DNA from: an uncultured Clostridia bacterium
GTDB lineage: Bacteria > Bacillota > Clostridia > Christensenellales > UBA1242
Direction: 5' to 3'
NCBI GenBank assembly: GCA_944384375.1
Contig: CALWTE010000002.1
Span: forward strand, 538 to 64,537
Length of the DNA stretch: 64,000 bases
Shown piece after piece: positions 18,620 through 34,583 of the stretch (position 1 is its first letter; each line of letters begins with the position of its first letter). The translations under genes were made by a program, and so were the position numbers. Under the pieces are notes generated by a model. That model was not told where the DNA came from and searched no databases. It was given only the letters and a program-made list of their open reading frames with translations.

Positions 18620-18646
18620 AAAAAAACGAGCAGATATATCTGCCCG
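18618..18646 (-). terminator. Intrinsic terminator ending the phage-like gene run
   Basis: Minus strand reads CGGGCAGAT-ATAT-ATCTGCTCG followed by nine T. It starts 11 nt after the stop at 18657. Confidence 0.7.
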
Positions 18647-18656
18647 TAAAAAACTT

Positions 18657-19544
18657 TTAATTTTGATTTAAAATTTTGTTTTTTATTTCAAGAAATTTCT
18701 CATTTGTTAGCGTTTTGACTTTACTATTAGTTTGCTTTTCACTACTTGTTACGTTATTCACCGCTAGCACTTGTGATTTTCTAGTATTTGTTGTGTCAGT
18801 CGTAATTGTTGAATTTTCTAAATTAAGAGAACTTTGAGTGTTCATATCAAGAGAATTTTGCGTTTCAGTTAAAGTTATGTTTTGGTTCATATTTTGGCTA
18901 TTATTCTGATTATACAAATTTGTATTGTTTTGATTATAACCGTCATTAGAATTTTGATTATTATTTTTGCTATACAAATTTGTATTATCTTCTTCATTTT
19001 GCGTATTAACAAAATTTTGAATATTTGCCAGTTCAGTAGCATTGTATGTTGGGTTTTCTAAACTTGACATTTCACTATAATTTGTATTTGTATGATTTTC
19101 GTGAAAATTATTGTCCACAATTTTTGTAGATTCCACAGCTTTTGCAGTAGAACTGTTATCTAAAGTTTTTGCAGATTCTGTTTTTAAACTATTTGTTTCA
19201 TTTGCATCAGTTTCCGCTGATTCTCCTTCCAAATTTTCTGTATTGACAACCTTTGTATTTGTCTTAGCAGCATCAGTTTCGTTTCCTTTATCCGCGTTGG
19301 TAGTTTCAGTTTCGTTTTCTGTTTCGGTATTTTTATTCTTTGCAAATAAGTTCTGAGCAGGATGCGAAATTATTCCCAGCACCACAAACACGCCAAGCGC
19401 ACTATTTACTATTGACATATAAGTTTCTTCGTCAACGGTAAGACTGAGTGGGCCACCTATTGCTTGAACCAACAATAAAACCGCGCTAGCAAGTGATACC
19501 CAAAAGCGATACGATTTTAATTTCTCTTTTAAATCTTCGCTCAT
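18657..19544 (-). CDS. Holin-like two-TM protein fused to a ~220-aa N/T/E-rich low-complexity tail
   Basis: N-terminal KSYRFWVSLASAVLLLVQAIGGPLSLTVDEETYMSIVNSALGVFVVLGIISHP resembles SPP1/XhlB-type class II holins. It is the last gene of the virion-type run. Confidence 0.45.
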   Translation of the reverse strand: MSEDLKEKLKSYRFWVSLASAVLLLVQAIGGPLSLTVDEETYMSIVNSALGVFVVLGIISHPAQNLFAKNKNTETENETETTNADKGNETDAAKTNTKVVNTENLEGESAETDANETNSLKTESAKTLDNSSTAKAVESTKIVDNNFHENHTNTNYSEMSSLENPTYNATELANIQNFVNTQNEEDNTNLYSKNNNQNSNDGYNQNNTNLYNQNNSQNMNQNITLTETQNSLDMNTQSSLNLENSTITTDTTNTRKSQVLAVNNVTSSEKQTNSKVKTLTNEKFLEIKNKILNQN

Positions 19545-19551
19545 TTTATCC

Positions 19552-20484
19552 CTACATCATTCTATTTACATAATCTAATACCGAACTATACCAGCCACCC
19601 AGCGAAGCCTTTATATCAGCATCATTTAAAATACGTAACGCTTCCGCCTTTGTTAACCCTTTTAACTGGTCAATAATGTAGACGCTTTTTTCCTGGCCTT
19701 TTTGAGCATCAAGGCGACTAGTAAAACTGTCAGCCCATTCTTGCCATTCCTGAATACGTTTGTTTCTAATTTCGGAAATTTCTGCATTGTACTTGTTTAA
19801 GTCAATAGTAAGTTGCTCATACTGTTTATTTAATTCTGCAATTTTATCTTCCAATTCTGATGCGTATGCAATATCAAACTTTTCCAAAGCGGAATTCATT
19901 TCGTTACGAGTCAATTCTCTTTGCAAATCAATCTCCGCTAGAGAATTATTTGCTCTTTGAATTTCGTACTCTAATTCGGTGTTAATTGAGTTTCGTAAAG
20001 AAGTTTGCATATTTTGTGCAATACTACTTCTCTCTATGCCTTGATTAATTTGGTTTGCTTGATTGTTTTCTAAACCTGTAGTCAATTCGTTTTCTAACTC
20101 TTGTTTAGTTTGTTCCAAATTTTGATTAATTGTATTTTTTCTTAAATCTAAAGATGCTAAGTCGTTTTGATACTCATTCACGATTTCTTGCTGATTAGTC
20201 ACACGATATGGCAATAAATCGTTTTCGGCTTCTTGTACAATTTGTTCTTGAGTAGGAATAGACGCATCTTTATAATCAGGCAAAGAATCTTCAAAATCTT
20301 CGTATACTGGATACTGTGATTCGTAACTTTTATCAATTTCGTTTAGCCTGTCTTTTACTGTGTCTAGAGTAGAACTAGTATTTATTTTAGGTTGTTGAGC
20401 AGCTACACGTGTAGAGTCACTAGTCGTAGTCACTTCTTCCATATCAATTTTCTCTCTATTGCTTTCTAAATTTTCCGTAGGCAT
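19552..20484 (-). CDS. Coiled-coil structural protein (310 aa), ejection/internal-protein-like by position
   Basis: Long Q/N/E/L heptad-like sequence. The probable start is the second ATG (20482-20484), preceded by GGAGGAGG. The ORF-track start at 20499 lies inside that RBS. Confidence 0.55.
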   Translation of the reverse strand: MPTENLESNREKIDMEEVTTTSDSTRVAAQQPKINTSSTLDTVKDRLNEIDKSYESQYPVYEDFEDSLPDYKDASIPTQEQIVQEAENDLLPYRVTNQQEIVNEYQNDLASLDLRKNTINQNLEQTKQELENELTTGLENNQANQINQGIERSSIAQNMQTSLRNSINTELEYEIQRANNSLAEIDLQRELTRNEMNSALEKFDIAYASELEDKIAELNKQYEQLTIDLNKYNAEISEIRNKRIQEWQEWADSFTSRLDAQKGQEKSVYIIDQLKGLTKAEALRILNDADIKASLGGWYSSVLDYVNRMM

Positions 20485-20537
20485 AATTACCTCCTCCATA
20501 TTTTAAATAAAAATTTTTTAAATACATTTGTATAATA

Positions 20538-20555
20538 AAAGAACTTTTGTTCTTT
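20538..20555 (-). terminator. Internal hairpin (AAAGAAC-AAAA-GTTCTTT plus T-rich tail) splitting the island into two transcription units
   Basis: Located between the 162-aa gene stop and the 310-aa gene start. Confidence 0.4.
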
Positions 20556-20605
20556 GTGTATATTTTATTTTTAGTCATTTTGTTACCATTTTTACTATAT
20601 TTTTA

Positions 20606-20646
20606 AGTACTATGCATGTGTATTATGCATATGCATAGTACTATAC
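20606..20646. repeat. Palindromic motif cluster: AGTACTATGCAT ... TATGCATATGCATAGTACTATAC
   Basis: Same half-site family as 10141-10156 and 59393-59439. It overlaps the stop codon of the 162-aa gene. Confidence 0.7.
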
Positions 20647-21129
20647 AAATACGCCTTTCGTAAGGGAAAAATCTTTGCTTAATAACATTTTTACGTTGCG
20701 TATTTCTCCATATAAACTAGTGTTTGTAGCCGTTAAAAATAATCCGCTATACGTAATTTCAGGAATAGGAACTTCTGCATATATAATCCCAGTCAACAAG
20801 TTATCACTTGCCGTTACATTAATACCACCACATGAAACATCATTATAAGTTAATGAAAAAGATACATCAACATTAGTTTTGAAATTAAATATTAAATAAA
20901 TTTTTGCTGTAGTAGAAGTAGATAATTGAGTAAGTTGCCCTAAAGGAATATTTGTTTCGGGTGAAAAATTTAAATAGTTTTCATACTCAATTAAGTTAAA
21001 ATTGTCACCTAAATATTGAGAAACATTAATATTATTAATTATTGAAAAATGGTTAGATAACTCATCTAGACGGTCTTCAAGTTCTGCTACCCTATTATAT
21101 AATTTACTATAATCATTATTATTTATCAT
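20641..21129 (-). CDS. Needle/fibre-like protein: N-terminal coiled coil plus C-terminal beta domain (162 aa)
   Basis: YSKLYNRVAELEDRLDELSNHF followed by a beta-rich domain. AGGTG lies 5 nt upstream of the ATG at 21127-21129. The ORF-track N-terminal extension overlaps the upstream gene. Confidence 0.5.
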   Translation of the reverse strand: MINNNDYSKLYNRVAELEDRLDELSNHFSIINNINVSQYLGDNFNLIEYENYLNFSPETNIPLGQLTQLSTSTTAKIYLIFNFKTNVDVSFSLTYNDVSCGGINVTASDNLLTGIIYAEVPIPEITYSGLFLTATNTSLYGEIRNVKMLLSKDFSLTKGVFV

Positions 21130-21136
21130 ATAACAC

Positions 21137-22630
21137 CTAACACAAAGCGACTTCCAATTGCGAATTTGAAATTTCACAACTTGCAACTTCACATTTAAAA
21201 GTAACACTAAACTTTTTACCTATTATATTTATAGGAACTCTACTTGGTGTAGCACTACCCTTGATTTTAAATTCAAAATCTTTTCCGTCTACATTAAATA
21301 TAACAGTAATATCCGTTTCTGTATTTAGCGAAAAATATTTGATTACCTTTTTATACGCAGGGTATCCCATATCAGTAAGGGGGGAAGTCCAAATTTTAGT
21401 AGTGATATTATCTTCAATTTTACCGTCTTGAGTTAATTCATATAACTTATTCCCTGCACTGCCATTTAATAGTATTAACAACTTACTAAATAGTGGCGCT
21501 TGAACTGCGTGCAAATAATTTATATCTACTCCCCTTAAAATTTGTATTTCACCCGTACTAATATCAAATTCTAGCAAAGTATTATTTGTATAGGTTGAAC
21601 TTTCACAACCAATTGTCCTACCATCATTATAGTTCAGTTTACATGCCAAATAATATTTTCCATCTAAAAAGGCGCCCACTGCCGACGAATTGTCTACATT
21701 CTCAAAATACTTATCTAAACCCAAATTTAACTTTTCCATACTTACGCCGTCAAAATAATACAAACCGTCTTTGCAAAGCATCAAAATCGTATTTCCGCAC
21801 AAAACAGCACTGTTGTAATACAATTTACCCGTTGTTAAATACATATTTTTTACAACAAAATCACTTTGCAATCCCCAAGCAGAAACGCGAGAAATACCAT
21901 ATTCTCTTATAACATATAGATAATTGTTTGATTCTATTACCTTCTTTAAAGTTCCACGTTCACCTGTTAATTCAATATAGCCACCTTCAAATTCGCTTAC
22001 ATTCCAATTTGTCGGGTCTAAATCATCGCTAAACCACAAAACGTTTTCATCACCAGCAACTGTTGCAAAAAGCCTACCCGCGTGCAAAGCAATTGACGTA
22101 ATGGACGGAACGTTTTCCGTATATGTCGTAACACTAGAATCTCCGTTAAATTTTGAAATTTTATTTAAACCACACAAAAAGAAGCAATCTCCCTCATCAA
22201 TTCTATAATTTATTCCGTTTGGAATATCGGTGAAACTAGCATTAATTTGTGTAAATGTAGCAATGGAACTTTCCAATCTAGCGTAGTAAATATTCCCGTC
22301 ATCACAATATGCGACAAGTAAAGGCACATATGAGTTTGTGTTATGACTAAATCTCGTGTAGACCCAACATCGTATAATTTGATTAACTCCTGTTGGTGTT
22401 TGCAAAACTTTAGTTCCATAACCGTAAGGAATTTCAAATTCTTTTATACCTAAACCTGTGCTAAGACTTCGTTTGTTAAAATTAAAGTTAAAAGTATTTA
22501 CTGCGTAATTTAATGGAAGTAGGTTTTCACTTAATTTTGTGTTAATTCCTTGAGAAAAATCACTCAAAGTCACACGCAACGATGATTTTGTATTGTCAGG
22601 TAAATTTTGACTATAAATCACTATACCCAA
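21137..22630 (-). CDS. Tail hub-like structural protein (497 aa), beta-propeller-like repeats
   Basis: Size and position after the adaptor-like gene resemble P22 gp10. Repeated aromatic/Gly beta-blade-like segments (LWFSDDLDPTNW, GGYIEL, LYVIREYGISRV). Confidence 0.45.
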   Translation of the reverse strand: MGIVIYSQNLPDNTKSSLRVTLSDFSQGINTKLSENLLPLNYAVNTFNFNFNKRSLSTGLGIKEFEIPYGYGTKVLQTPTGVNQIIRCWVYTRFSHNTNSYVPLLVAYCDDGNIYYARLESSIATFTQINASFTDIPNGINYRIDEGDCFFLCGLNKISKFNGDSSVTTYTENVPSITSIALHAGRLFATVAGDENVLWFSDDLDPTNWNVSEFEGGYIELTGERGTLKKVIESNNYLYVIREYGISRVSAWGLQSDFVVKNMYLTTGKLYYNSAVLCGNTILMLCKDGLYYFDGVSMEKLNLGLDKYFENVDNSSAVGAFLDGKYYLACKLNYNDGRTIGCESSTYTNNTLLEFDISTGEIQILRGVDINYLHAVQAPLFSKLLILLNGSAGNKLYELTQDGKIEDNITTKIWTSPLTDMGYPAYKKVIKYFSLNTETDITVIFNVDGKDFEFKIKGSATPSRVPINIIGKKFSVTFKCEVASCEISNSQLEVALC

Positions 22631-23190
22631 CTCCTTTTCTTCATTACAATGTTATTTTTGTTGCGTGCGGATATCAATGCTGCCTGTTCAAACATTGAAT
22701 TCCATGAATTTGCGTCTGTATACATACCTAAAAACATATAATATCTACTGACAACGCCTAGAGCCATTAATCGTACTGAAACTTTATTCTCCACAATTTC
22801 CAAATCCGTGACGCAATCCTCCACAAAATCAGGCATATATGTGTAAATAATGTTTAAAGTACCCTTTTTTGCTTCAAAATACGTTGGAAAAGAAGCATAA
22901 TCAACGTTTAAGTTATGTTCATCAGTTATTTTTACTATATCTATAATAGATTTTTCCAAACCAGAAAAACTATAAACGCACGTTTCAGAAGTGATTTTTT
23001 GCTCATATTTTAAAGGAAAATACATTAATGCTAAACTTTGTACAGTGTCATTAACACAAGTCAATAATAAATTTAGTTTTTCTACCTGTTGGTCTGTAGG
23101 CGTTATACTACCACCTAAAGTAGTAGTATTAGCCAAATCTGGCTCACCTATATAAACAACAGCTAGGTTTAAAACGTCTTTTGCAGTCAT
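22621..23190 (-). CDS. Head-to-tail adaptor-like protein (189 aa)
   Basis: Position immediately after the capsid genes. AAGGAG lies 6 nt upstream of the ATG at 23188-23190. Its 3' end overlaps the next gene by 10 nt. Confidence 0.4.
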   Translation of the reverse strand: MTAKDVLNLAVVYIGEPDLANTTTLGGSITPTDQQVEKLNLLLTCVNDTVQSLALMYFPLKYEQKITSETCVYSFSGLEKSIIDIVKITDEHNLNVDYASFPTYFEAKKGTLNIIYTYMPDFVEDCVTDLEIVENKVSVRLMALGVVSRYYMFLGMYTDANSWNSMFEQAALISARNKNNIVMKKRSWV

Positions 23191-23238
23191 TTTTACTCCT
23201 TTTAAGCCCATTTTGTTTGATAAGCATCTTTAAAATCG

Positions 23239-23583
23239 CTATCTTCTTCTCTTTTTTTTTGTATAATCAAACATTTCACGAACTTTCCAATTAGTTTCAT
23301 CTGTAATGGCTTTTTTAGAATTATTTTCTAACATTTCATTTTGTTTTTCTATTTCTGCTAAAATTTTACGTAAGTTCTCAATACGTGTTTTCCGTAATTT
23401 ATCTATAACCCTAGAATCAAGGCCAAAATCACAAGTTATGCAAAAAGTATTGCTTTTTTGGTGTTTATTGTGTATTTCGTACCTGTTTTTGTCGGTATTA
23501 TACACTGCATAGTACCCAGAGTCTATTTCTTTAATCCTAGTAGAAATATCAAAAACATCATTTATAATTTTTATTAAAGCCAT
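23239..23583 (-). CDS. Small basic coiled-coil protein (114 aa), head completion/decoration candidate
   Basis: Intact ORF with RBS between the capsid paralog and the adaptor-like gene. No motif recognised. Confidence 0.4.
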   Translation of the reverse strand: MALIKIINDVFDISTRIKEIDSGYYAVYNTDKNRYEIHNKHQKSNTFCITCDFGLDSRVIDKLRKTRIENLRKILAEIEKQNEMLENNSKKAITDETNWKVREMFDYTKKKRRR

Positions 23584-23597
23584 TTTTTCTCCTTTTA

Positions 23598-24788
23598 TTA
23601 ACCGCCTGATAGTATTAGACGTCCATTTTTGTTTGGTCTATCGCAAATTAAATCACAATATTTTACTAAAGTTGCTGTATGAGCGGCATAACCTTCTTTT
23701 TGGTGAATTACTTGTCCTTTGTCGTTACTCAACCATGTCCAATCGCATAATTGATGGAAGTTAAAAGTGCTAGAATCTAGCAAGTATCCTTCGCGTTTTT
23801 CAACAAATCTATTTGCAACAACAGGAATTCCATTCACTGTAATAGCGCGTACTCCACCTTCCATAACTGTAATGTCTGAGTTAAAAGCATAGTTTTTAAG
23901 AGCGCGTTGGTAATTTCTACGCCAAATATAGTCACATACAATAATGTCAATATTTGCGTTATAATTTAATTTTATATTATCAATTGCTTGCAAAACTGTA
24001 GCAAAAGTAGTTTCTGTTGATAAAAGTGTTTCCGTTGTCGCTGTTAAGAATGAATTGTTTGTCCTACTTAATCCATACAGTGTAGCCACTTTTGTTGGGT
24101 GCAAAATTCCGTGAACACCTACTATTTCACTACTTGCCTGTGTAGCCAGTTTAAACTTGATTTCACCTGTAACTGTATTTTCTTCGTCATATTCACAACC
24201 AACAGGCAAAGTTATTGTTTCGTTTTTATAGTCAACATCTAGAACTTCTACATTTGTTAGATATTCAATAGCTTCACCAAACATATCATAACCAGTGATA
24301 TGCATACCTGGCATAAATCTATTTACAGGGTCAACAGGATAAACTCTCTCACCGTCTACTTCATCGGTGGAAGCACCAATTAGTCCATCACCGTCTCCGT
24401 ATAGAATACGCCTTAAGTTAAACTTACTTGATTCTATCAAATTTTCCATTTCTGCATTCAAAAGATTTAAAAATGCGCCGGTTTCGTTTTGGCTAGCCCT
24501 AATTGCCTTGTCTGAAATTTCAATTTGACCATATAAATTTTTTAAAGTTGTAGTCAAAGCAGCATAATTGCTTTCTTGAGATTTTGGTAAGCTACCGACT
24601 TCAGAACCTGCTCCGATTCCACCATTGATGCCGATAGTTATAAGTTTCTTAATTTCATTACCCGTAATATCTTGAGATGTCTTTTTTATTTTTGAGTAAA
24701 AAGGGTCAGTGTCGTTTTCTAATTCGTTTTTAATAACATCAAGATAAACATTTTTTAAGGCACTATCTGCCGTACTTAAAGATATCAT
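23598..24788 (-). CDS. Major capsid protein-like, paralog 2 (396 aa)
   Basis: Follows the scaffold-like gene. About 55-60% identical to 24802-25998 over the first ~135 aa by manual alignment. Shared blocks are NGGIGxGSE, TTTLKNLxGxIEIxDKAIRAS and ATLVKYxDLICxRPN. Confidence 0.6.
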   Translation of the reverse strand: MISLSTADSALKNVYLDVIKNELENDTDPFYSKIKKTSQDITGNEIKKLITIGINGGIGAGSEVGSLPKSQESNYAALTTTLKNLYGQIEISDKAIRASQNETGAFLNLLNAEMENLIESSKFNLRRILYGDGDGLIGASTDEVDGERVYPVDPVNRFMPGMHITGYDMFGEAIEYLTNVEVLDVDYKNETITLPVGCEYDEENTVTGEIKFKLATQASSEIVGVHGILHPTKVATLYGLSRTNNSFLTATTETLLSTETTFATVLQAIDNIKLNYNANIDIIVCDYIWRRNYQRALKNYAFNSDITVMEGGVRAITVNGIPVVANRFVEKREGYLLDSSTFNFHQLCDWTWLSNDKGQVIHQKEGYAAHTATLVKYCDLICDRPNKNGRLILSGG

Positions 24789-24801
24789 ATTTTTACCCCC
24801 T

Positions 24802-25998
24802 TTATGAACTCAAACTTACTGTAATCAAACCTTGAGCATTTGGTCTGTTACAAATTAAGTCCGCATATTTTACTAAAGTTGCCGAAAAAGTTGGAAAACC
24901 TTCCTTTTGGCGTAGAATTGAGCCGTCATTATTAGTCAGCCATTCCCAGTCACACAATTGGTACAAATTGAACATTTCGGTGTTTAACATCAAAAGTGTA
25001 TTTTTTTGACAGAATTTATTCCTAATTACAGGTACCCCGCTAAAAGCAACACTTGTTATTCCACCCTCAAAATTAGTACTATCTAAATTTTTTGAATAAT
25101 TAGCAATAAAAGTTATAATTTTATAGTAAACTTCACTAGGACAAGCGATAATATTTGGTTGATACCCTGAACGTATTTCAATATCATCAAGCATAGTCTG
25201 GATAAAAACTTCGTCAAAAGTTTCAGTATCATTACCACTAGTTTTTTGGGTATATAGATATGGCATAAGTGATGCATAATCAGCACGATTTATTCCATAA
25301 AGTGTAGTACTGCTACCAAAAATAGCACCCAACCCTGTCAATTCACAATCTTTGCTACCTTGAATGTAAAATTTGTATTTTGTAGCATTAGTAGATGTAA
25401 AATTCGTTGATTTTGCTGAAACGTAAACTGTGTTACTAGCCCTGTTAATTTGAGTAATTGTTACCCCTTTCATCGCCGGGTCTAAAACGCCATCATTATA
25501 AAAATCTAGCACCATCCCTTCCATAAGGCTCGCAGTATTATCAACCACAAAAGAATTGTCCGTTGAGGAAATACTGGAGATTGTGCCTAGAGAACCAGTA
25601 CCATCACCATAAAACATACGCGCTAAATTAAATTTACTAGATTCTAGCAAACTATCCATTTCTGCAGTTAGTAAATTTACAAAAGCACCTTCATCATTTT
25701 CTGATGCTCTAATTGCTTTGTCTGTAATTTCTATTGTCCCAAAAAGATTTTTCAATGTTGTAGTAAAATTTACATATTTTGTTTCTGCACTTTCAGGCAA
25801 TGCGCCATCTTCGCTACCAGTACCAATACCACCATTTAGACCATAAGGCACTAATTTTACAATATTCTTGCCATAAATATCGGAAGAAGTTTGTTTAATA
25901 GTGTTGAATATAGGGTCAATTTGAGTGTTTAATTGAGCAGATATAGCGTCTAAATATACAGTTTTTAGCGCATTTTGTGCCGTAGTTAAAGTAATCAT
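24802..25998 (-). CDS. Major capsid protein-like, paralog 1 (398 aa)
   Basis: Capsid-size ORF directly after the scaffold-like gene. Paralogous to 23598-24788. AGGAG RBS. Confidence 0.6.
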   Translation of the reverse strand: MITLTTAQNALKTVYLDAISAQLNTQIDPIFNTIKQTSSDIYGKNIVKLVPYGLNGGIGTGSEDGALPESAETKYVNFTTTLKNLFGTIEITDKAIRASENDEGAFVNLLTAEMDSLLESSKFNLARMFYGDGTGSLGTISSISSTDNSFVVDNTASLMEGMVLDFYNDGVLDPAMKGVTITQINRASNTVYVSAKSTNFTSTNATKYKFYIQGSKDCELTGLGAIFGSSTTLYGINRADYASLMPYLYTQKTSGNDTETFDEVFIQTMLDDIEIRSGYQPNIIACPSEVYYKIITFIANYSKNLDSTNFEGGITSVAFSGVPVIRNKFCQKNTLLMLNTEMFNLYQLCDWEWLTNNDGSILRQKEGFPTFSATLVKYADLICNRPNAQGLITVSLSS

Positions 25999-26011
25999 AA
26001 ATAATTTTCTC

Positions 26012-26827
26012 CTATTTCATTAATAATTTTTTTGCCAATTCTTTGGCTTCTTTCATAGAAAGTGCTTGTTTTTTATGTTCTGCGATAATTTCCGCACCTG
26101 AATTTAAAGTTTTAGAAATCACAGCGGGTGCAGATTTATTTGATTTTAATGAATTTAAGTATTCTTGAATAACTTTTTGCTTAATTTTTTCATTTTTCAT
26201 TACTATTTCTTCTAAATCTGCATTATTTATTGCGTTTTCATCAACTTTATTTTCTAGAACTTTTATCCAAGCCTGTTGCAAGGGGTCTACTGAATCACGT
26301 ACAACCTTATCTTGCACTAAAACCTTACCTATTTCCTTTACATAATTCTTCGCTTTTGAATTATTATTGAAAAAGTTTTCTACATTTTTATTCCAACTAG
26401 CACTTTCCCAAATTTTTGCGGGAGTATTGGATACTTTGTCCGCAGCACTGTCAGGGGTTTTTACCTTGTCTGACTGATTTTCTATGACTAAAGACTCGTC
26501 CGTTTTAGAAATCTCGCCTGTAAACTCATTTAAATTATCGGTTTTTTCTTTATTTACATCATTTTTTAATAAATTTTCGCTATTTCTTGCTTGTTTTCCG
26601 TCATTTTCGGTTAAAATTTCGTTATTTTGAGCCTTTTGCGTACTATTTGCTTGTTCTTTTTTGATTTTTGATAGTTCCATAGCATTTTTAGTAAAACTTT
26701 TACGTAAGCAGTCATAAGCATCTTTTAGGGTTTTTACTGATTTAAATGTTCCTAAGTCCGTATTGTCTGGTTGCAATTCTTCTAGATTGAATTCTGGTAA
26801 ATTGATTTTAATTTCATTTTCTTCCAT
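26012..26827 (-). CDS. Scaffolding-like protein (271 aa, acidic/Lys-rich, helical)
   Basis: Position between portal and capsid genes. Low-complexity charged helical sequence. No protease motif. Confidence 0.5.
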   Translation of the reverse strand: MEENEIKINLPEFNLEELQPDNTDLGTFKSVKTLKDAYDCLRKSFTKNAMELSKIKKEQANSTQKAQNNEILTENDGKQARNSENLLKNDVNKEKTDNLNEFTGEISKTDESLVIENQSDKVKTPDSAADKVSNTPAKIWESASWNKNVENFFNNNSKAKNYVKEIGKVLVQDKVVRDSVDPLQQAWIKVLENKVDENAINNADLEEIVMKNEKIKQKVIQEYLNSLKSNKSAPAVISKTLNSGAEIIAEHKKQALSMKEAKELAKKLLMK

Positions 26828-26883
26828 AAAATTCTCCTAAAAATATGATTTTTTATATGTTTTTTAGTGTTTTTTGCTGTATT

Positions 26884-28806
26884 TTACTGGCTATTTGCTA
26901 CTGATGTTCCGTTTTCTGCTAATTGTGTCAAGCGTTTGTAGCGCTTGTGTTGTCTAATATGCTCTAGCATTTTTTCTTTTAATTTATTTTTATTTTTGTT
27001 TGCTTTTTCAAAATCAGCACTCAGCATAAATGCTGTATGACTACTAATATGCAAATCGTGGTCGTGTATTTCTAGAACTTCGGGGTCTTTTCCTTCTAAA
27101 AACTCTTGATTTTCACGTTTTGCTTTTTCTACTTGCAAACTATTGTTATCAAGGGCATCTTCCCAAATTCCAAAGCCCAGCATTTCCATTACTTTTAAAC
27201 GCATAGCGTTAGATAATTTACCATTCTCGTCATGTAACAAGCCTGCTTGCAATAATTCAAACACCATATTACGTTTTTGTGCAACAGTTTCACCGATTTC
27301 ACTTTCGGTTTCAAAACTTACATCGTCACTTGTTATTTCACTACTATCCCAGTAAAACAACTTGCTTGCGCCATTTTCGCCTACAATTTTGTTAATTCTT
27401 TGTGTCGTAATGAATTGTTTATATAGTCTCAAAATTTGTCTACCTATTTCTTTAAGAGCAAATCTTATATACTCGCCTGATGCCGAAATGCGCATATCTT
27501 CTTGTTCAACTAATACTTGCAATGCTACCCCACTCATATTTGCTAGCGCGCTAGTATTTGTTCCAAACAAATCGTTTACACCGCTGATATTTATAAATTC
27601 ACTAATTAATTTATCTTCTTCGTCTCTAAAATCTACAGGCAAACTTGAAGTGGCCAACATTTGCGGAGCACGTGCGCCTTGTCTATAAATCAAAACTTTT
27701 CCAGGACTCAAGCCCTCGTCTTCTAGGTTTTCAATATCAACAGAGCCGTCTTCTACACTCATAACCCCCATACAAAGTCTATTCATAAATTCGTGTTTTC
27801 TATTTTTTACTGCATTATACGCTCTTTGGACTGGAATACAACGTTCTACAATTGAAGTTCCCCAAAAAAGTGATGGCTGACTAATACTAATTTGCCGAAC
27901 AAAAGGAAAGCCCCTTTCATTATTTTGTAAATTTTTATAAGGCAAATCGCCATTATATAGCAATTTATCACCAGCAACAATTATCAACCTACCATTTGGG
28001 AATTCGTCGTTTGGCATTTCGTAACGTTCAATCACTAATGCGTGATTGTGTTTTACTGTTTTTGCAACTTTTGCCGAATGACTGGCGTAACCTAGCCCGC
28101 CCGCAACCTGTGAGTTTTGCAAGTTATATGTATCAATATCTTCGCCAGGGATATCAACGCCCCAGTGCTTTTTAATGGTTTTTACATCATAAGCGCGTGC
28201 ATGAATTATACTTTGGCAACTTTCAATTGATTCAGCAGTGTTACTATCAGGATAAATTTCAAAAGGCGAACAAACCAAAATATCCACATCGCCTTCATAG
28301 ATTTTTTCACCTAAAGTGGTTAGTCCTACGACAGACCCCGCCGAGTCATTCCAAACTATTTTGTAGAACACAGTACCACAGATTTCACTCCAGCGTGTCG
28401 CTAACGAAACAAGCTTGCTCAACTCTAGTTTTGCAGTAATTGACTGTAAAATATCCTTACAAATATGAGCGTTGCTTACGTCATCTTCGTCATTACTTGC
28501 TGGTAAAACGGTCATTTTAGGGCGAACTGTTGCAAGTTTTGATAGCCTAGTTTCAACTAATGGTGCGATGTGATTATAAACTTCACGTTCTTGCCAAAAA
28601 TATTGCTTATCAAAATCGTCTAATGTGTTGTTAATTCCTATACCGCAGTACTGATTACCCATTACAAAATTCATATTTAATTGCCATTGAGCATCAAAGG
28701 GACGACGTTCTTCACGACGTCTTTCAAAATCTTTTAAAACTTCGCCGACTAATTCTTTTTCTTGCAAAGTTTTACTTTTTTGTGTTTTTTTGATATCTTT
28801 TTGCAT
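26884..28806 (-). CDS. Portal protein-like (640 aa)
   Basis: Size and position immediately downstream of the terminase module. Assignment is by synteny only. Confidence 0.6.
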   Translation of the reverse strand: MQKDIKKTQKSKTLQEKELVGEVLKDFERRREERRPFDAQWQLNMNFVMGNQYCGIGINNTLDDFDKQYFWQEREVYNHIAPLVETRLSKLATVRPKMTVLPASNDEDDVSNAHICKDILQSITAKLELSKLVSLATRWSEICGTVFYKIVWNDSAGSVVGLTTLGEKIYEGDVDILVCSPFEIYPDSNTAESIESCQSIIHARAYDVKTIKKHWGVDIPGEDIDTYNLQNSQVAGGLGYASHSAKVAKTVKHNHALVIERYEMPNDEFPNGRLIIVAGDKLLYNGDLPYKNLQNNERGFPFVRQISISQPSLFWGTSIVERCIPVQRAYNAVKNRKHEFMNRLCMGVMSVEDGSVDIENLEDEGLSPGKVLIYRQGARAPQMLATSSLPVDFRDEEDKLISEFINISGVNDLFGTNTSALANMSGVALQVLVEQEDMRISASGEYIRFALKEIGRQILRLYKQFITTQRINKIVGENGASKLFYWDSSEITSDDVSFETESEIGETVAQKRNMVFELLQAGLLHDENGKLSNAMRLKVMEMLGFGIWEDALDNNSLQVEKAKRENQEFLEGKDPEVLEIHDHDLHISSHTAFMLSADFEKANKNKNKLKEKMLEHIRQHKRYKRLTQLAENGTSVANSQ

Positions 28807-28814
28807 TTTTTACC

Positions 28815-29018
28815 TCATTTTTCATTATTTTCTAAATAAAATTTACTTTTTACAGATTTTGGAATTATGATTTTACCTAATTGCATGTATAAATCAGTCA
28901 TACATTCTTTACATAAATTCACACTGTATTTGTTAAATTTAATGTTGCAAAAAATAATATTTTCACAACCTAATTTACCAGCACACCGTACCCGCTTGTT
29001 TACAATATTTACTTTCAT
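28815..29018 (-). CDS. Small Cys-rich zinc-ribbon-like protein (67 aa)
   Basis: CAGKLGC...C...CKEC cysteine pairs. Tightly packed between the 97-aa gene and the portal. Confidence 0.45.
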   Translation of the reverse strand: MKVNIVNKRVRCAGKLGCENIIFCNIKFNKYSVNLCKECMTDLYMQLGKIIIPKSVKSKFYLENNEK

Positions 29019-29019
29019 T

Positions 29020-29313
29020 CTAAGTACCCCCTTTTGAAATACTTGCTAGTACTTTTTCTCGTAATTTTTGTAATTCTTCATCACTTAGACTTTTAATTTT
29101 TTCCAAATTCATTTCATTGCTTTTTTCCAGCAAGGCTTTTGCCGCATTTATATCGGGTGGAATGTGCTTTTTTGTGATTTTTTTCTTAACAAGTTTTAAT
29201 TCATTCTCATCATTTACATATTCTTCAACAATTTCGTCAACAGAATAGCCCATTGCTTTTTTTAATAATGTTTTGGTTAATTTGTCATTTTCATCCGTTT
29301 TAATAATAACCAC
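29020..29313 (-). CDS. Small basic protein (97 aa), possible small-terminase/DNA-recognition subunit
   Basis: Overlaps the TerL 3' end by 14 nt. KKKITKKHIPPDINAAKALLEK resembles small-terminase-like proteins. Weak. Confidence 0.35.
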   Translation of the reverse strand: MVIIKTDENDKLTKTLLKKAMGYSVDEIVEEYVNDENELKLVKKKITKKHIPPDINAAKALLEKSNEMNLEKIKSLSDEELQKLREKVLASISKGGT

Positions 29314-30754
29314 CCCTTTTTAAATTGTTGTGCCGAACACGTGACAGCAATTTTTCTTTGTGAATTTGTATCATTGTTGGTTTTTCCTTTTCCAAAGTGG
29401 CATTTTCTGGGCGGGACATAATATAATAGCGCAAATCGTCCATCGCGTGGTCGTCTTTTTTAATGGGCGCATCTTCATTTCCCCACCAGTAGCCTTTAAT
29501 TTCGCGAATCATATTCACACAATTAGAAAAAATAAACAATTTTGCTTCATTTTTTGCATTTTTTAAGTAACTTTTTACTCTGGATATGCCTGAAAACATA
29601 TCTTTATTTACATTTGTGTTTACATTTATGCCATAATCATAAAACAACTCGCTGACACTTTTTGGACTAGAGAGCGTGCGTTGATTGGCTGCCGAATCTA
29701 TCAAACAGTCATAAAAACCATTAAAATTTTGCTTCCAACCTAACTTTTTGCAAATTTCTTTAATTTTGTTTGCATGATACTCTATTGTCTGTTCGGCTTC
29801 ATAATGTTCGGCAATGACATACACATTCCCATCATAATCAACTGCATACCAATGGCAACTTAAAGGGTTGTGTAGACCAGGGTCAATGCTTATTTTATCG
29901 TACCAGTCAGTAGGAACTTTGAATGGCTCTATAACGTGAGTATTGATATCAAATTCACTATAAACTAGCCCACCACGTGCCGAGAATTTACCAAACCTAC
30001 GTGATTCCAACTCATCAGGACTCAAAACACTGCTTAGACTATCAATTTCCGCTTTTTGCAAAAAAGGATTATCCGCCCACTCCATTTCTATATACCAGAC
30101 TTCAGCATCGTTACTTTCATTTAAGTAAATTTTATCATAAACCCAAGTCAGCCCTTTTAGCGGAGTCATTGTTCCAAAAATGTCGCCCACTTTATCCAAA
30201 ACTCGCATACGACATTCTAGATAGATATCAAAGGGTGGTTCTTCGTCAAACCAAACCCAATCTAGACTAGTACCCTGAAATTTTTCTCTACCCTGGTCAC
30301 AAGTTTTAAAGCCGATTTTACTGACGCCACCGAAAATGTTTTTGATTAATATGTAATCTATAACTCCACTTTTTGGTGAATCTTTTCTACCATTCAGCAT
30401 AACTATATCTACAATCCAATCGGGATTTAAGTAATATAAAATTTTATCTTGTGCCACATCACGCTGAACCTGTTGACTAAGACTAACCACCCACCCTTCC
30501 GTATTTGGTTTATTTTCTCTAAATGGATGAATGCCTCGTGCTAGCCAAATTGCTTCAACCGCTCCGCATTGCGTCTTGCCACTTCTATTGCCACCAAATA
30601 CCCATCTATTTCTTTTTTTACACTTATGAAACAACATTTGTTTTTTATGTATTTTTTTACCTTTGTTATACTCTTGTAGTTTGTTATTTTCTTTCCGTCT
30701 AGCAATTTCTTTATCAATTAATTCTAAGTTATATAGGGCTTCATTTAATTTCAT
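29300..30754 (-). CDS. terL: Terminase large subunit (ATPase plus nuclease)
   Basis: Walker A FGGNRSGKT and Walker B LDWVWFDEEP. The C-terminal half has a D-rich RNaseH-like nuclease pattern (IDPG..., DDHAMDDLRY). 484 aa. Confidence 0.85.
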   Translation of the reverse strand: MKLNEALYNLELIDKEIARRKENNKLQEYNKGKKIHKKQMLFHKCKKRNRWVFGGNRSGKTQCGAVEAIWLARGIHPFRENKPNTEGWVVSLSQQVQRDVAQDKILYYLNPDWIVDIVMLNGRKDSPKSGVIDYILIKNIFGGVSKIGFKTCDQGREKFQGTSLDWVWFDEEPPFDIYLECRMRVLDKVGDIFGTMTPLKGLTWVYDKIYLNESNDAEVWYIEMEWADNPFLQKAEIDSLSSVLSPDELESRRFGKFSARGGLVYSEFDINTHVIEPFKVPTDWYDKISIDPGLHNPLSCHWYAVDYDGNVYVIAEHYEAEQTIEYHANKIKEICKKLGWKQNFNGFYDCLIDSAANQRTLSSPKSVSELFYDYGINVNTNVNKDMFSGISRVKSYLKNAKNEAKLFIFSNCVNMIREIKGYWWGNEDAPIKKDDHAMDDLRYYIMSRPENATLEKEKPTMIQIHKEKLLSRVRHNNLKRGGYY

Positions 30755-30877
30755 TATCTACCTTTTAGTATAAAAAATATAATTTTCGCGTTCTTTTTGT
30801 TTAAAATTTGTAAAAAAAACAATAATTGCATTAAGAAAAACAATCATTGTTTGATAAAATAGCATAGGAGTTTAGTT

Positions 30878-31687
30878 ATGCGTAAATATTTATACATTTT
30901 TATTGCATTAATATTCATTTTTCAAATAAATTATTTTTGTAATCTATCGCCTACTTTTGCGCAAGGAGAAGTGTATTACCGAATCACTGGGCAAGAAGTT
31001 ACGCTATATCGCACACCCGTCTTAGACGAAGATTATAGCAATATTTATTTCACTTTGCCAACTAGTTATTTTGTAAAATTTATAGCGGAAGAAAATGAGA
31101 ATTTTTTAAAAGTTCAATATATTGATTTTGTGGGGTACGTGCTAAAAACTGATGTTACACAAGTTTATTCTACACCTGTAACACCATACTTTACTCAAAC
31201 TTTTACTGTCTTTGGAACAGCGAATCCAGTAGTTTGGAGTCAGCCTAGCACTCAATCAACGTATTTAGGAAATATTCCTTTTAATGCAGAAAGTGTAACT
31301 TGCTTTGGTGCTATTAATGGAGAAATCGCTCTAGAAAATGGTGGTAGCACGTGGTATTTTTGTCGCTACACTAGTTTTGAACAAGGCATTTTAACGGGTT
31401 ATGTTTATGCAAATTTAACTACTAATTTAAGTGAGTTTGTGGAAAATACCGAAATCGTCGAGACCGAACCATCGCAAGAAACTTCGGGTGAAATCTTTGC
31501 ACCTGAACTACAAAATGGCACAAGTATTATTTTAATTGTTGGCCTGTGCATCTTTGCTCTCATACTTTTAGTTCTAGTATTCAAGCCTGAAAGACGTCGC
31601 AAAAAAGCAGAAGCAAAACGTCAAATTACGACACTTAATAGACTAGCAATACCTGATAAAAACAAGCACGATGAATTAGATTTTTAA
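30878..31687 (+). CDS. Secreted, C-terminally anchored protein with two SH3b-like domains
   Basis: Signal peptide. VTLYRTPVLDEDYS...FLKVQYIDFVGYVLKTDV fits SH3_3. C-terminal TM helix IILIVGLCIFALILLVLVF plus RRRKK. Confidence 0.6.
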   Translation: MRKYLYIFIALIFIFQINYFCNLSPTFAQGEVYYRITGQEVTLYRTPVLDEDYSNIYFTLPTSYFVKFIAEENENFLKVQYIDFVGYVLKTDVTQVYSTPVTPYFTQTFTVFGTANPVVWSQPSTQSTYLGNIPFNAESVTCFGAINGEIALENGGSTWYFCRYTSFEQGILTGYVYANLTTNLSEFVENTEIVETEPSQETSGEIFAPELQNGTSIILIVGLCIFALILLVLVFKPERRRKKAEAKRQITTLNRLAIPDKNKHDELDF

Positions 31688-31694
31688 AAATTTG

Positions 31695-31717
31695 TGCATA
31701 GTACTACGTATAGTACT
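31695..31717. repeat. Palindromic motif variant TGCATAGTACTACGTATAGTACT
   Basis: Same half-site family. A further half-site AGTACTATGCA at 31835-31845 lies inside the 3' end of the regulator gene. Confidence 0.6.
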
Positions 31718-31828
31718 TTTTTAGTAAAAATTAGATAAAAAGCATTAAAATATTAGTTTTTTATTAATTTTTGCTCAAAAAACGTTAAATTTTAGCAATT
31801 TTTTTGGCTTTTCCATTTTTTATCGTAC

Positions 31829-32407
31829 TCAAACAGTACTATGCACATTTGATTTCACTTGCCTACCGTACCCTAAACTTAACACCTTGTCAATGCCGTG
31901 TAGAGTGGGTACTTTTAGACGCACAAGCTCTGGGTGACTTTTCTTAAATCTATCAACTATTGAATTATATACACCAATAATCCAGCCTTCATTCTCTAGC
32001 AATCTCTCTAAGTCTTCACACTTGTACCCCAAATCGTAGATCCTATCCATACAGTTACGCAAATATTTATTCATACGGCGCGCTAATGTCCTATTATTCA
32101 TTTTATACTCATCTGCCAACTCGTCAATAGCGACTTTGTCTATGTAAAATTTTATTAAAATTCTTGCTTCTTGCCTATCGGTATTTTTAAGTGATTCTTC
32201 TACCATCCATTTTACAATAAGTAATCTTTTTTTGCGCTGTATCAAATCAATAATTGCTTCCATTTTTGCTAAAGTGGTTGACTCGCCCGAATCAACAGTA
32301 TAGCTATGCACACTTTTTTCCATAACTAGTCTATCAATACTGCTAATTAATCGGCTCAAATATTTATAAGATTCAAAAATCGTTTTTGCCCATATTAATT
32401 TTTTCAT
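31829..32407 (-). CDS. Sigma-70 region-4-like / ArpU-RinA-Xpf-type late transcription activator candidate (192 aa)
   Basis: Central segment RQEARILIKFYIDKVAIDELADEYKMNNRTLARRMNKYLRNCMDRI has the region-4 HTH pattern. GGAGG lies 7 nt upstream of the ATG at 32405-32407. Confidence 0.45.
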   Translation of the reverse strand: MKKLIWAKTIFESYKYLSRLISSIDRLVMEKSVHSYTVDSGESTTLAKMEAIIDLIQRKKRLLIVKWMVEESLKNTDRQEARILIKFYIDKVAIDELADEYKMNNRTLARRMNKYLRNCMDRIYDLGYKCEDLERLLENEGWIIGVYNSIVDRFKKSHPELVRLKVPTLHGIDKVLSLGYGRQVKSNVHSTV

Positions 32408-32505
32408 AAAAATCCTCCAAAATTTTTTCAAAAAATCAAAGCATCTCTGCGTTTTGCTACAAATATTATTACAAGATGTTATGAATTGTCAATATTTTAG
32501 GACAC

Positions 32506-32777: not shown

Positions 32778-34583
32778 ATGAAAAAATTTTGGTTAAATAG
32801 TCTTATCTTGTGCATTTGCTTGCTCGGGTGTCTAAGTGCGGATACCCTATTTGCTAGTGGCACTCAGTTTAATGCCGTCAACACACCTATAAATATTAGC
32901 GTAAGTGAAACTACTCCGCAAAGCATTGACGATTTATATTATAATAATAATTCACTTTTTGTTGTGGATAGCACGGGCAAAAATATTTTTAAAATAGATT
33001 TAGACACTGACGAACAAACCATAGTTTTTAATGATAATGACATTGTGCCTTTTGATATTGTTATTTCTAATGAACAATTGATAATTTCGTCTAACAATAT
33101 GTTCGTTTATATTGTAGATTTAAATAATGACAATGCTAGCGAAAGTTTTTCTCAAGAAATTCGCTATTATTATAATAATGGTGAAACAAGTGGTTTAACT
33201 TCTACAAACCGAAAAGTAGTAGCGAGTGCTACTGGCGAAGTATATTTTATATGGGATAGTGTAATTGCTAGACTAGATTTAGAAAATGACAGACTTGAAC
33301 ATTTTGCAACACTAAATTATGATGAACAAAATTTAACCTTTACTGACGGAGAATTTTTCGTAACCGAAGACAATTCAACCATTTACTTTACTATTGAAAA
33401 TTCCATCTATTCTCTTGACACGAATACGAAAAACATAACATTACTAGACAATTCTACCCTAGCAAATCCTAATCAAATTGATTTCTTGACTTTTGACAAT
33501 TTAGGTAATACCTATATTTTAGACGGCTCAACTTTAATAAAAGCGAACACTACTGGCACTGAAACTGTGACTTTAAGTGATATAAATAATATTGAAATCA
33601 ATTTAGAAACGGGACAAGTCTATACAGCGAACACGAATCAGCTCTACCTTACAACAATTATAGATGATGCGGGCAATCCTTTTATATTAGGTTACAAAAA
33701 TGAACCTGCTCCTGTTGATTTAAATGATATTGAAATTTCAAATGAACTTGTAAAAGTCATTGAAGCAAACACAGAAACAAACTTATACACATATAAAAGT
33801 TTGCAATTTACTACAACAACCTACGAAATCGGTAAAAAATTAATTGTTTTAGATGAAAGCGATTCTAATTTCTACTATGTTTATGACAGTAATTTTGCCG
33901 ATAGTGAATTTGGCTATATGCTCGGTTATGTGCTAAAAGACGATTTTAATATTTGCCCAAACACCTTGCCTAGTGATTTTGTATCAAGTCAACAAGGCAA
34001 AATTATAGTGCAAGAAAGTAAGGTTTTTGTGCTACCTACCAGTCTAAATATTGATGCTGATACTAAGGCTAAGTTTGCAACAAAACTAGACTACAACACT
34101 ATTGTAACGATAATTTCCGCTCCTATAATGCCTACCGATGCCGAAAATGTAGCTTTCTATGCAATTAGGCTAACTATTGATGACCAGGAAGTTATTGGTT
34201 ACATTGACAGTAGAACTGTTATAAACATTCAAGACGAAACTTTGCCAAACACCCCTGTAGCAAATGCTACCACAAGAGCAGAAACGATTGTATATCTTGA
34301 AGAAACTTGCGAAACAGAGATAGAAACAATTCCGCAAGGCATAAATGTACGTATAATTAGTAGTGCAGACGGTGTTAGTCATATTCAATATTTTATAGAT
34401 CAAGACGGGCAAACGATTATTAAAGAAGGTTATGTTAGGACAAGTTTTCTTGATGATGGCACACTTACACTAACTCAGATTTTAGGTATAGTTTTAATGA
34501 TTTTATCTATTATTATTGCTATTATTATTGCCATTGTAATTAATAAAAGCAAAAAGAAAAAGGAAGAAAGCAACTCTTTATAG
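32778..34583 (+). CDS. Secreted, C-terminally anchored protein: N-terminal beta-propeller-like region plus three SH3b-like modules (601 aa)
   Basis: Signal peptide. Repeated blade-like segments. SH3b-like strings ending GYVLKDDF, GYIDSRTV and GYVRTSFL. C-terminal TM helix plus KKKKEE. Confidence 0.6.
   Translation: MKKFWLNSLILCICLLGCLSADTLFASGTQFNAVNTPINISVSETTPQSIDDLYYNNNSLFVVDSTGKNIFKIDLDTDEQTIVFNDNDIVPFDIVISNEQLIISSNNMFVYIVDLNNDNASESFSQEIRYYYNNGETSGLTSTNRKVVASATGEVYFIWDSVIARLDLENDRLEHFATLNYDEQNLTFTDGEFFVTEDNSTIYFTIENSIYSLDTNTKNITLLDNSTLANPNQIDFLTFDNLGNTYILDGSTLIKANTTGTETVTLSDINNIEINLETGQVYTANTNQLYLTTIIDDAGNPFILGYKNEPAPVDLNDIEISNELVKVIEANTETNLYTYKSLQFTTTTYEIGKKLIVLDESDSNFYYVYDSNFADSEFGYMLGYVLKDDFNICPNTLPSDFVSSQQGKIIVQESKVFVLPTSLNIDADTKAKFATKLDYNTIVTIISAPIMPTDAENVAFYAIRLTIDDQEVIGYIDSRTVINIQDETLPNTPVANATTRAETIVYLEETCETEIETIPQGINVRIISSADGVSHIQYFIDQDGQTIIKEGYVRTSFLDDGTLTLTQILGIVLMILSIIIAIIIAIVINKSKKKKEESNSL

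Follow-up and report, generated by a model that had tools for sequence, protein, structure and literature searches.

What is a compact run of phage head and tail genes doing among the sporulation and housekeeping genes of an uncultured member of the Christensenellales? The question is raised by a 64,000-nucleotide stretch of DNA (GenBank assembly GCA_944384375.1, contig CALWTE010000002.1, positions 538 to 64,537 of the forward strand; below, the window), in which a particle gene set of about 14 kb occupies positions 18657–32407 of the minus strand. An earlier note, made from the letters of this stretch, had described a head and short-tail gene set in the order of phage P22, without early genes, and had proposed a domesticated element in the style of PBSX or of a gene transfer agent (GTA). 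Family searches of the window (Pfam, PHROG and NCBIfam) and fold comparison (AF2 models with Foldseek) agree with the gene set so described. The cluster is read here, with moderate confidence, as what remains of a short-tailed (P22/SU10-class) phage, now fixed in the chromosome, passed on vertically and kept by Christensenellales as a GTA-type viriform. Five observations bear on this reading: the identities of the genes, the missing autonomy genes, the spread over many species, the shared chromosomal neighbours and the purifying selection.

Virion genes and missing phage functions

The minus-strand run of intact, closely packed open reading frames (ORFs) was confirmed from 30754 to 18657, with overlaps or short gaps between them, and every ORF that had been listed earlier exists. 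The G+C content of the block, about 33%, is indistinguishable from that of the flanking DNA. Family searches revealed all three features of a virion module, a large terminase, a P22-type portal and an HK97-class podovirus capsid protein, encoded like the rest of the run on the minus strand. The large terminase TerL (29300..30754) matched PF03237 (4.9e-13) and phrog_2 (9.6e-31), and contains the Walker motifs GGNRSGKT and LDWVWFDEE that had been quoted for it. The 640-aa protein previously described as portal-size (26884..28806) was a portal of the P22/SU10 type, as seen from matches to PF16510 (5e-17), PF23899 (SU10_portal, 4.9e-9), phrog_156 (1.9e-31) and the portal of phage GP4 (8jov_0, 4e-6). 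Two capsid-size paralogs, sharing 40% identity in the window, both belong to the podovirus major capsid family NF033394 (capsid_maj_Podo, score cutoff 80 bits): paralog 1 (24802..25998) scored 220 bits and paralog 2 (23598..24788) 197 bits, with phrog_14242 matched at 8e-49 and 1e-28, respectively.

The nozzle and adaptor of the tail were identified by fold comparison only, on matches that concern monomers; no significant match came from PDB sequence-profile searches with the families of the nozzle, the adaptor, the capsid and the 97-aa, 114-aa and 162-aa proteins. The AF2 model of the 494-aa protein at 21137..22621, built from a 54-sequence alignment (pLDDT 88, pTM 0.87), had its closest Foldseek match in the tail of phage Pa223 (9nwi_Y, E 2e-21, TM-score 0.73), followed by tail-complex entries of VP1, GP4, PhiM1, SU10, P22 (9jg6_a) and T7, and by this modelled fold the protein is a podovirus nozzle of the P22 gp10/T7 gp12 class. 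The model of the adjoining 196-aa ORF (22621..23211; the start is likely Met8, giving 189 aa) came from a shallow 13-sequence alignment (pLDDT 74.5). It matched the adaptors of KHP30, DEV, Pa223, PhiM1, N4, SU10 and crAss001 at a Foldseek probability of 1.0 and T7 gp11 at 0.99, and is predicted to be a head-to-tail adaptor of the T7 gp11/SU10/N4 class. Virion-protein folds were thus found in both, and the parallel with P22 gp4 and gp10, which had been drawn from synteny, is supported by fold for adaptor and nozzle. Since portal, adaptor and nozzle are all encoded, the block specifies the stub tail of a podovirus. Its tail genes are adaptor and nozzle, and no contractile sheath, tube, baseplate or tape-measure genes were found in the block. 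The domesticated element proposed earlier is supported as a candidate by synteny, folds and the ratio of non-synonymous to synonymous substitution (dN/dS).

The remaining proteins of the head region are small. Next to TerL lies a 97-aa charged helical protein (29020..29313) with a weak match to the small terminase (TerS) family phrog_309 (8e-6, C-terminal segment only), no PDB relative by profile search and no detected helix-turn-helix (HTH); from its sequence it is a possible small-terminase-like partner without a recognisable DNA-binding domain. It had been called basic, and its computed pI of 7.9 makes it highly charged but near neutral. It is followed by a 67-aa Cys-rich, zinc-ribbon-like protein (28815..29018), found in 33 loci. 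Between portal and capsid, a 271-aa protein without a family match (26012..26827) was assigned to the scaffold position, like gp22 of phage Shocker; it had been described as acidic, and by its pI of 6.1 it is not markedly so. A 114-aa basic protein (23239..23583), with no Pfam match and no PDB relative, may by its position be a head completion or connector protein. The 162-aa protein after the nozzle (20641..21129) combines an N-terminal coiled coil with a beta-rich C-terminus and has no family or PDB match; it is a candidate needle, fibre or receptor-binding protein by position, and occupies a variable slot that elsewhere holds one to three ORFs of 140–800 aa. The earlier parallels with gp26 and the ejection proteins, drawn for this protein and the 310-aa coiled coil, are at most putative.

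At the lysis end are an acidic 310-aa coiled-coil protein of the DUF7934 family (19552..20484; PF25588, 1.2e-16), with a divergent homologue in locus L079 (8.7e-26), and a protein with an N-terminal two-transmembrane (TM) domain (18657..19544), which had been called holin-like and matched the holin families PF04531 and phrog_297. The window's holin is fused to a lineage-specific, Asn/Thr/Glu-rich low-complexity tail of about 230 aa, whereas homologues elsewhere measure 100–190 aa in all. An intrinsic terminator (18626..18647, minus strand; 9-bp stem with 5 GC pairs, T8) closes the operon.

Family scans of window ORFs of at least 110 aa (Pfam) and of the smaller ORFs of the block revealed no integrase, recombinase, replication gene, repressor, prohead protease, tape measure or endolysin, the same result that had been reached by reading the translations. 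The other ORFs of this size had only host functions, several being without any match. One flank carries YtfJ, a dacB-type S11 peptidase, and RluB-type and PlsC-type genes, the other YetF, DUF4363 and a SpoVB/MurJ-type flippase; the flanks had been described as sporulation and housekeeping genes, which holds for the ytfJ/dacB-type and spoVB-type genes and is not confirmed for ytfI, the ORF in question (227 aa) having no family match. Further host genes in the window encode SpoVT, FtsZ, FtsA, large surface proteins, LemA, AddA/AddB and a Zn peptidase. A specific link of the block to sporulation would be contextual, drawn from these neighbours.

Spread, chromosomal context and selection

Relatives of the capsid protein were encoded by at least 587 of the 600 matches listed in GTDB contigs, which hold one genome per species. 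The named carriers are Christensenellales (Candidatus Onthoplasma, Borkfalkia, Fimimonas, Scatosoma and 'Christensenella sp.'), and mis-binning probably explains a few stray labels of metagenome-assembled genomes (MAGs; Spirochaetales, Corallococcus, Acidiphilium). The protein collection contained more than 4,200 relatives among its scored candidates, many of them on contigs of 0.1–1 Mb, and a profile search of 50%-identity representatives gave 677 capsid clusters at E ≤1e-30. The DNA of the window also occurs unchanged in a Logan contig (L087) and, at 99.9% identity, in a MAG contig from Brazil (L088).

Comparison of 83 loci from other genomes (80 species-representative, three from metagenome assemblies; flanks of at most 10 kb) revealed a recurrent gene order. 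It starts with a large divergent membrane or surface protein, a regulator and a divergent SH3b membrane protein of 250–350 aa, continues with TerL, the 97-aa protein, in some loci the 67-aa protein, portal, scaffold, capsid and the 114-aa protein, and ends with adaptor, nozzle, one to three variable ORFs, in some loci DUF7934, and holin. The conserved unit is thus wider than 18657–32407, as it also includes the divergent genes at 30878–31687 and 32778–34583. Gene presence was counted with profile hidden Markov models in the 55 fully covered loci: nozzle, adaptor, 97-aa protein, portal and capsid were each present in 55/55, TerL in 49, the 269-aa membrane protein and the 114-aa protein in 48 each, and the regulator in 45.

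The neighbours are shared as well. In 21/36 informative loci a polysaccharide deacetylase and an SSB-domain protein lie upstream. Downstream are two multipass membrane proteins followed by RNase J (in 13/41 loci), an O-methyltransferase and peptidase U32, and other flanks contained Mur ligases, MurG, FloA, DnaK, SpoIVA or ribosomal protein S2. In the sister species represented by locus L084 (84% capsid identity) the block occupies the same position as in the window, beside YtfJ, dacB, rluB and plsC, with the deacetylase/SSB pair upstream. The SSB-domain protein is 217 aa long with a C-terminal SSB OB-fold (L084 1–1345; L015 1440–2093), and in many cases spoIIGA and the gene of a sporulation-type sigma factor stand ahead of the pair; the window has a 472-aa ORF, DUF4363, YetF and the SpoVB-type gene instead. 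No close relative was seen to carry the block inside a complete prophage, the 83 loci sitting among housekeeping and sporulation genes. No serine recombinase homologue was found within 10 kb in these loci, and no recombinase family was among those matched by two or more of the 149 flank proteins.

This context bears on whether the cluster is a mobile phage satellite, a helper-dependent element resembling cf-PICIs that makes its own capsids and takes the rest from a helper. Its compact capsid and packaging genes, the lack of an endolysin or obvious fibres, the late-activator-like regulator and the many fragments classed as viral by IMG/VR would suit such an element. Yet the family scans found no integrase, primase/rep gene or repressor in the window, and no alpA/stl-type module in window or flanks. 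Against a satellite also stand the absence of serine recombinases within 10 kb of the genome-derived loci, the chromosomal neighbourhood shared across species with synonymous divergence (dS) equal to that of neighbouring host genes, and an own adaptor and nozzle, which make a borrowed tail unnecessary; a satellite is considered very unlikely.

Selection was estimated by the Nei-Gojobori method, and the pair L003/L010 offered unsaturated dS (0.2–0.67). In this pair dN/dS was 0.015 for TerL, 0.022 for portal, 0.032 for capsid, 0.055 for nozzle and 0.081 for adaptor, and ranged from 0.015 to 0.19 over all block genes, with the maximum in the 67-aa protein. The adjacent host genes gave comparable dS and ratios of 0.017 (RNase J), 0.034 (O-methyltransferase) and 0.010 (peptidase U32). 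Between the window and L084 dN/dS was 0.03–0.24 with dS near saturation; dS of the regulator and of the 67-aa protein was saturated, so these two gave no ratio. Across comparisons TerL ranged from 0.015 to 0.05 and the DUF7934 gene from 0.07 to 0.13, the scaffold-position protein being the highest of the block (0.13–0.33). Both capsid copies were under purifying selection (paralog 2, 0.11). Values near 1, which the earlier note had associated with neutral decay, were not seen, all genes with a computable ratio lying far below. Additionally, divergence of portal, capsid and nozzle correlated with that of neighbouring host genes (Mantel rho 0.23–0.82, p ≤0.0065). These results fit an element that has long been inherited vertically and in which each gene is functionally constrained.

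An ordinary defective prophage remnant, strain-specific and in neutral decay, is scarcely credible in this light. The early genes are missing, as such a remnant would have it, and there are lineage oddities, namely the holin with its long low-complexity tail and a capsid gene that is split in locus L049. The capsid relative is nevertheless present in at least 587 species-representative genomes, all ORFs of the block are intact with dN/dS of 0.015–0.33, and core genes occur in 55/55 loci.

Deposited phages are distant, with only 22–27% identity in capsid and portal. The closest, Shocker (Microbacterium) and Jasmine, Adat and Brad (Arthrobacter), share with the cluster the order TerL, two small ORFs, portal, scaffold-size ORF and capsid, the two small ORFs of Shocker standing where the cluster has the 97-aa and 67-aa genes; unlike the cluster, all four are complete phages of about 45 kb with early genes. 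No significant match to the profiles of adaptor, nozzle, 97-aa protein, 114-aa protein or regulator was found in Shocker, so that the parallel rests on gene order together with portal and capsid.

In IMG/VR 70 loci were found. Those above 40% capsid identity that could be read show the compact block, many others being short fragments. Phage-like gene contexts were limited to loci at 25–32% capsid identity, on contigs of 42–60 kb, which have many small upstream ORFs and no regulator or SH3b gene. These distant relatives, which look like complete phages on viral contigs, are one argument for regarding the cluster as the late genes of a temperate phage that is still functional and has its early, replication and integration module outside the window or the 10-kb flanks; the coverage of 10 kb per side in other genomes is another. 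Such an arrangement is highly improbable, as the flanks are housekeeping DNA both in the window, over 18 kb to one side and 30 kb to the other, and in dozens of other species. We know of no tailed phage with late genes at a different chromosomal locus from its early genes.

Four long IMG/VR contigs were considered as counter-examples and set aside, because each has a TerL or capsid gene that is truncated and borders on a different prophage. That prophage encodes a pair of neighbouring large serine recombinases together with an Mtd-type fibre or an amidase. Such arrangements were seen in L125 (3376–6515 and 6733–7263), L135 (5867–9026 and 10223–11113), L159, L160 and L146 (5141–7187, where an amidase-type lysis end abuts the gene). 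No such insertion was present in the block among the 83 genome-derived loci. Prophages have thus integrated into the TerL or capsid gene on these contigs, which may amount either to inactivation or to a phage-borne on/off switch.

Proposed particle and cargo, and known relatives

A podovirus-like GTA, FpGTA, was recently described in Faecalibacterium prausnitzii, another gut commensal of the Clostridia (PMC12946183; Nat Commun 2026), so the earlier statement that no podovirus-type element is established in spore formers is out of date. FpGTA is the only known podovirus-type GTA example, and the full-text literature search found no other description of such a cluster. Its operon I, about 9.6–10.5 kb with ten ORFs, encodes a TerS without DNA-binding domain, TerL, portal, a Prp-like protein, a capsid protein of the 'N4-gp56 family', nozzle and a 'TolA-like' protein; fibres, holin and endolysin lie at a second locus 125 kb away, and the particles, about 40 nm and apparently tail-less, hold about 9 kb of host DNA (PMC12946183). 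The present cluster resembles it in the compact order of TerL, portal, intervening protein, capsid and nozzle, in the podovirus-type tail, in the absence of autonomy genes and in a coiled-coil protein after the nozzle. The length of operon I, about 9.6 kb, equals that from TerL to nozzle in the cluster, and FpGTA is near-ubiquitous in its own host clade, as the cluster is widespread in its own. They differ in host order, in the capsid (N4-gp56 family by NCBI naming, RCH50849.1, against NF033394), in the slot after the portal (Prp-like against scaffold-size protein) and in location, the cluster having holin and regulator in the same locus and no known second locus for endolysin or fibres. The window capsids did not match TIGR04387 at E ≤0.01, FpGTA being compared via NCBI family naming only. 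On account of capsid family naming, the scaffold-size protein and the location of holin and regulator, the cluster is treated here as a separate GTA-like member and not as FpGTA.

GTA-like packaging has also been reported for Christensenellaceae in the same study, with 4.1 and 7.1 kb for HGM11616 and 6.3 kb for QANA01, and no gene cluster was named (PMC12946183). The present cluster is a strong candidate for the genes responsible.

To our knowledge, GTAs outside the Alphaproteobacteria are almost unknown at the gene level. The alphaproteobacterial RcGTA parallels the cluster in its phage-derived head, tail and packaging genes, its lack of replication and integration genes, its vertical inheritance and its purifying selection; its small terminase is without sequence specificity, and accessory genes may sit elsewhere. 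RcGTA differs in being siphovirus-like, with tail tube, tape measure and prohead protease, and in having no homologous regulator, and its neck matched the adaptor model weakly (Foldseek probability 0.1–0.2). Closer in architecture are the modules of P22, SU10, Pa223, GP4 and T7, which share the portal families PF16510/PF23899, the adaptor and nozzle folds, the lack of a prohead protease and the order terminase, portal, scaffold, capsid, adaptor, nozzle. The cluster departs from these modules in having no tailspike or long fibres, no identified ejection proteins, no needle homologue and a pair of capsid paralogs; its terminase stands ahead of two small ORFs, whereas the podovirus terminase follows TerS.

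Going by its genes, the cluster would make particles that package host DNA and may transfer it. Portal, scaffold-size protein and capsid protein or proteins would form a procapsid, which TerL would load by headful packaging. As no sequence-specific small terminase is recognisable, the expected cargo would be fragments of host DNA, shorter than the cluster of about 14 kb itself. Adaptor and nozzle, whose folds were described above, would close the portal and form a very short tail, for which the variable protein encoded next may provide needle or fibre, and release would depend on the holin together with a lysin encoded elsewhere or with host autolysins.

The same conservation evidence would be expected from a domesticated particle with a function other than transfer, such as killing or lysis in the manner of PBSX, programmed lysis with release of DNA, or delivery of protein cargo. 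PBSX of Bacillus subtilis is the precedent in Bacillota, since it packages host DNA yet kills (PMC12946183). Like the cluster it is a defective phage-like element of Bacillota, packaging host DNA and lysing its producer; it differs in its myovirus-like contractile tail, its repressor, its SOS induction and its narrow host group. The PBSX-family TerL model TIGR01547 matched weakly (32 bits against a cutoff of 105 bits), and no other structural homology was detected. A non-transfer particle would also be in keeping with the absence of a recognised receptor-binding protein from the cluster and with the conserved SH3b membrane proteins beside the operon, which have no GTA counterpart. Conversely, TerL and portal are among the most constrained genes (dN/dS 0.015–0.08), which argues that DNA packaging matters, and podovirus particles have no contractile killing device. 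A non-transfer function is considered unlikely, while carrying appreciably more weight than a satellite or a decaying prophage.

Several points weigh against the cluster being a GTA-type viriform. That reading concerns genes, from which expression, particles and packaging are predicted. Nearly all comparative data come from MAG contigs with flanks of at most 10 kb, and the flank scan covered the best 25 families listed, which a distant or lone tyrosine integrase could escape. No TerS is established, the 97-aa protein having a weak and partial match only; there is no endolysin in the cluster and, apart from the 162-aa candidate, no recognisable tailspike or receptor-binding protein in the window. 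Six of the 55 loci are without adjoining TerL, regulator and 269-aa gene, and the prophages inserted into TerL or capsid on some metagenomic contigs imply that the system is not indispensable. The correlation with neighbouring genes would be compatible, in addition, with transfer of larger segments.

Most Christensenellales, a widespread group of gut commensals that has been associated with host health, are uncultured. An order-wide cluster with a candidate master regulator could make gene flow among them directly testable. It also offers a natural experiment on capsid-gene duplication, and raises questions about the split loci of some lineages and about prophage insertion into GTA genes.

Regulator, membrane genes and lesser features

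The regulator gene (31829..32407, minus strand) encodes 192 aa from the ATG at 32407, in an ORF of 200 aa. A sigma-region-4-like regulator had been placed upstream of the block from the translation, and this is supported by the PDB, in which a 43-sequence profile matched sigma region 4 of SigW/SigL (5e-7); the HTH is of the sigma-70 region-4-like type, with a phrog_36 match at 1.8e-8. By these sequence matches it is a candidate late-gene activator or antiterminator, and may be comparable with the RinA and ArpU families, whose members activate late genes in Gram-positive phages. Upstream of it lies a sigma-A-type promoter-like site (32465..32492, minus strand; TTGACA-16-TG-AATAAT, 11/12 consensus matches), from which, going by the consensus match, the regulator may be made as from an ordinary promoter. 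It would then switch on the 13-gene operon that starts at TerL.

No strong sigma-A promoter was found ahead of TerL, which fits a dependence of the operon on the sigma-region-4-like protein. A conserved hairpin with a 12–13 bp stem followed by T8 (30812..30852, minus strand) lies just upstream of TerL, and a TTTTAAAC box follows at 30799–30806; the regulator may act at this region, through activation or antitermination. The hairpin is kept in eight species of the subclade with a variable loop, and its RNA fold has -11.7 kcal/mol (z = -4.9). At the two stem positions that vary, A-U and G-U are the only pairs seen, and since the stem shows no double compensatory changes, a DNA operator is also compatible with it: the hairpin may act as a terminator, insulating or attenuating the operon, or as a palindromic operator. 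An order-wide promoter motif upstream of TerL was sought and given up, the intergenic regions being too divergent and the ORF starts too uncertain beyond the subclade.

Two membrane genes on the plus strand accompany the regulator. The 269-aa protein (30878..31687), divergent from TerL across a 123-bp spacer, carries two SH3b-like GYV modules as well as a signal peptide, one TM segment and a short tail, as seen in an alignment of 35 homologues, and dN/dS was 0.04–0.15. The 601-aa surface protein (32778..34583), divergent from the regulator, has a signal peptide and a C-terminal TM segment; it is a conserved neighbour of the block, is 590–1170 aa long elsewhere and has homologues with weak SH3_3, GW and NHL matches.

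A wider proposal, possible and advanced tentatively, combines these elements. A podovirus-derived GTA, fixed before the radiation of the Christensenellales, would be the machinery behind the Christensenellaceae GTA-like packaging seen in human faecal virus-like particles. It would have a sigma-region-4 switch, an attenuator-like leader, paired SH3b membrane partners and, in one subclade, a two-capsid shell, and would be a recurrent integration target of serine-recombinase prophages, which could act as an off or on/off switch.

The tandem capsid duplication is restricted to the window's subclade, other lineages having a single capsid gene, and an orthologous duplicate is retained in L004–L009, L012, L018, L033 and L084. 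Paralog 2 is possibly a vertex-specific subunit, by analogy with gp24 in T4. Other lineages vary at the left end of the block. In L011, L034, L057, L058, L067 and L074 the genes from the 97-aa protein to holin are intact without regulator, 269-aa gene and TerL, with FloA, ABC-transporter or Mur-ligase genes to their left instead, which suggests a split multi-locus arrangement or loss of packaging. In one sub-lineage an ORF of 730–766 aa with a weak GLUG motif only, sometimes joined by a 369-aa ORF, lies between TerL and the 97-aa gene (L046 4984–7284; L055 3634–5871; L057 3970–6246; L060 2685–6295; L105 3204–6691).

A capsid homologue with an upstream 262-aa charged, scaffold-like ORF is also present in Anaerofustis stercorihominis, a cultured member of the Eubacteriaceae (CP176644.1, about 1337820–1339859; L162 9191–11230), between pyruvate formate-lyase and a leucine-rich repeat (LRR) protein. 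No other block gene occurs within 10 kb of this pair, which is identical on contigs from several sources and may be a capsid-only relic or else one component of a dispersed system.

In the window, an 80-aa Cro/C1 HTH gene (12432–12674, plus strand) lies 6 kb from the block with four host genes between, adjoined by the window's only tRNA (Thr-CGT, 13020–13095, minus strand), 5.5 kb from the block and without an integrase nearby.

The palindrome and hairpin cluster noted earlier between the 162-aa and coiled-coil genes is present at 20531–20642 (minus strand), where it separates the structural from the lysis genes; its first palindrome is a copy of AGTACTATGC. A further palindrome, AGTACTA-TACG-TAGTACT (31700..31717), lies between the convergent 3' ends of the regulator and 269-aa genes and is a possible bidirectional terminator. 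The palindromes after the 162-aa and regulator genes, both with the core AGTACTATGC, were considered as a block-specific regulatory site, which is ruled out by copies far from the block. The core AGTACTATGC/GCATAGTACT is a genome-wide REP-like repeat or terminator motif, with nine copies in the window against 0.29 expected, and its sites (10142–10155, 20606–20646, 31696–31717, 31835–31844 and 59393–59402) are mostly intergenic and lie both inside and outside the block.

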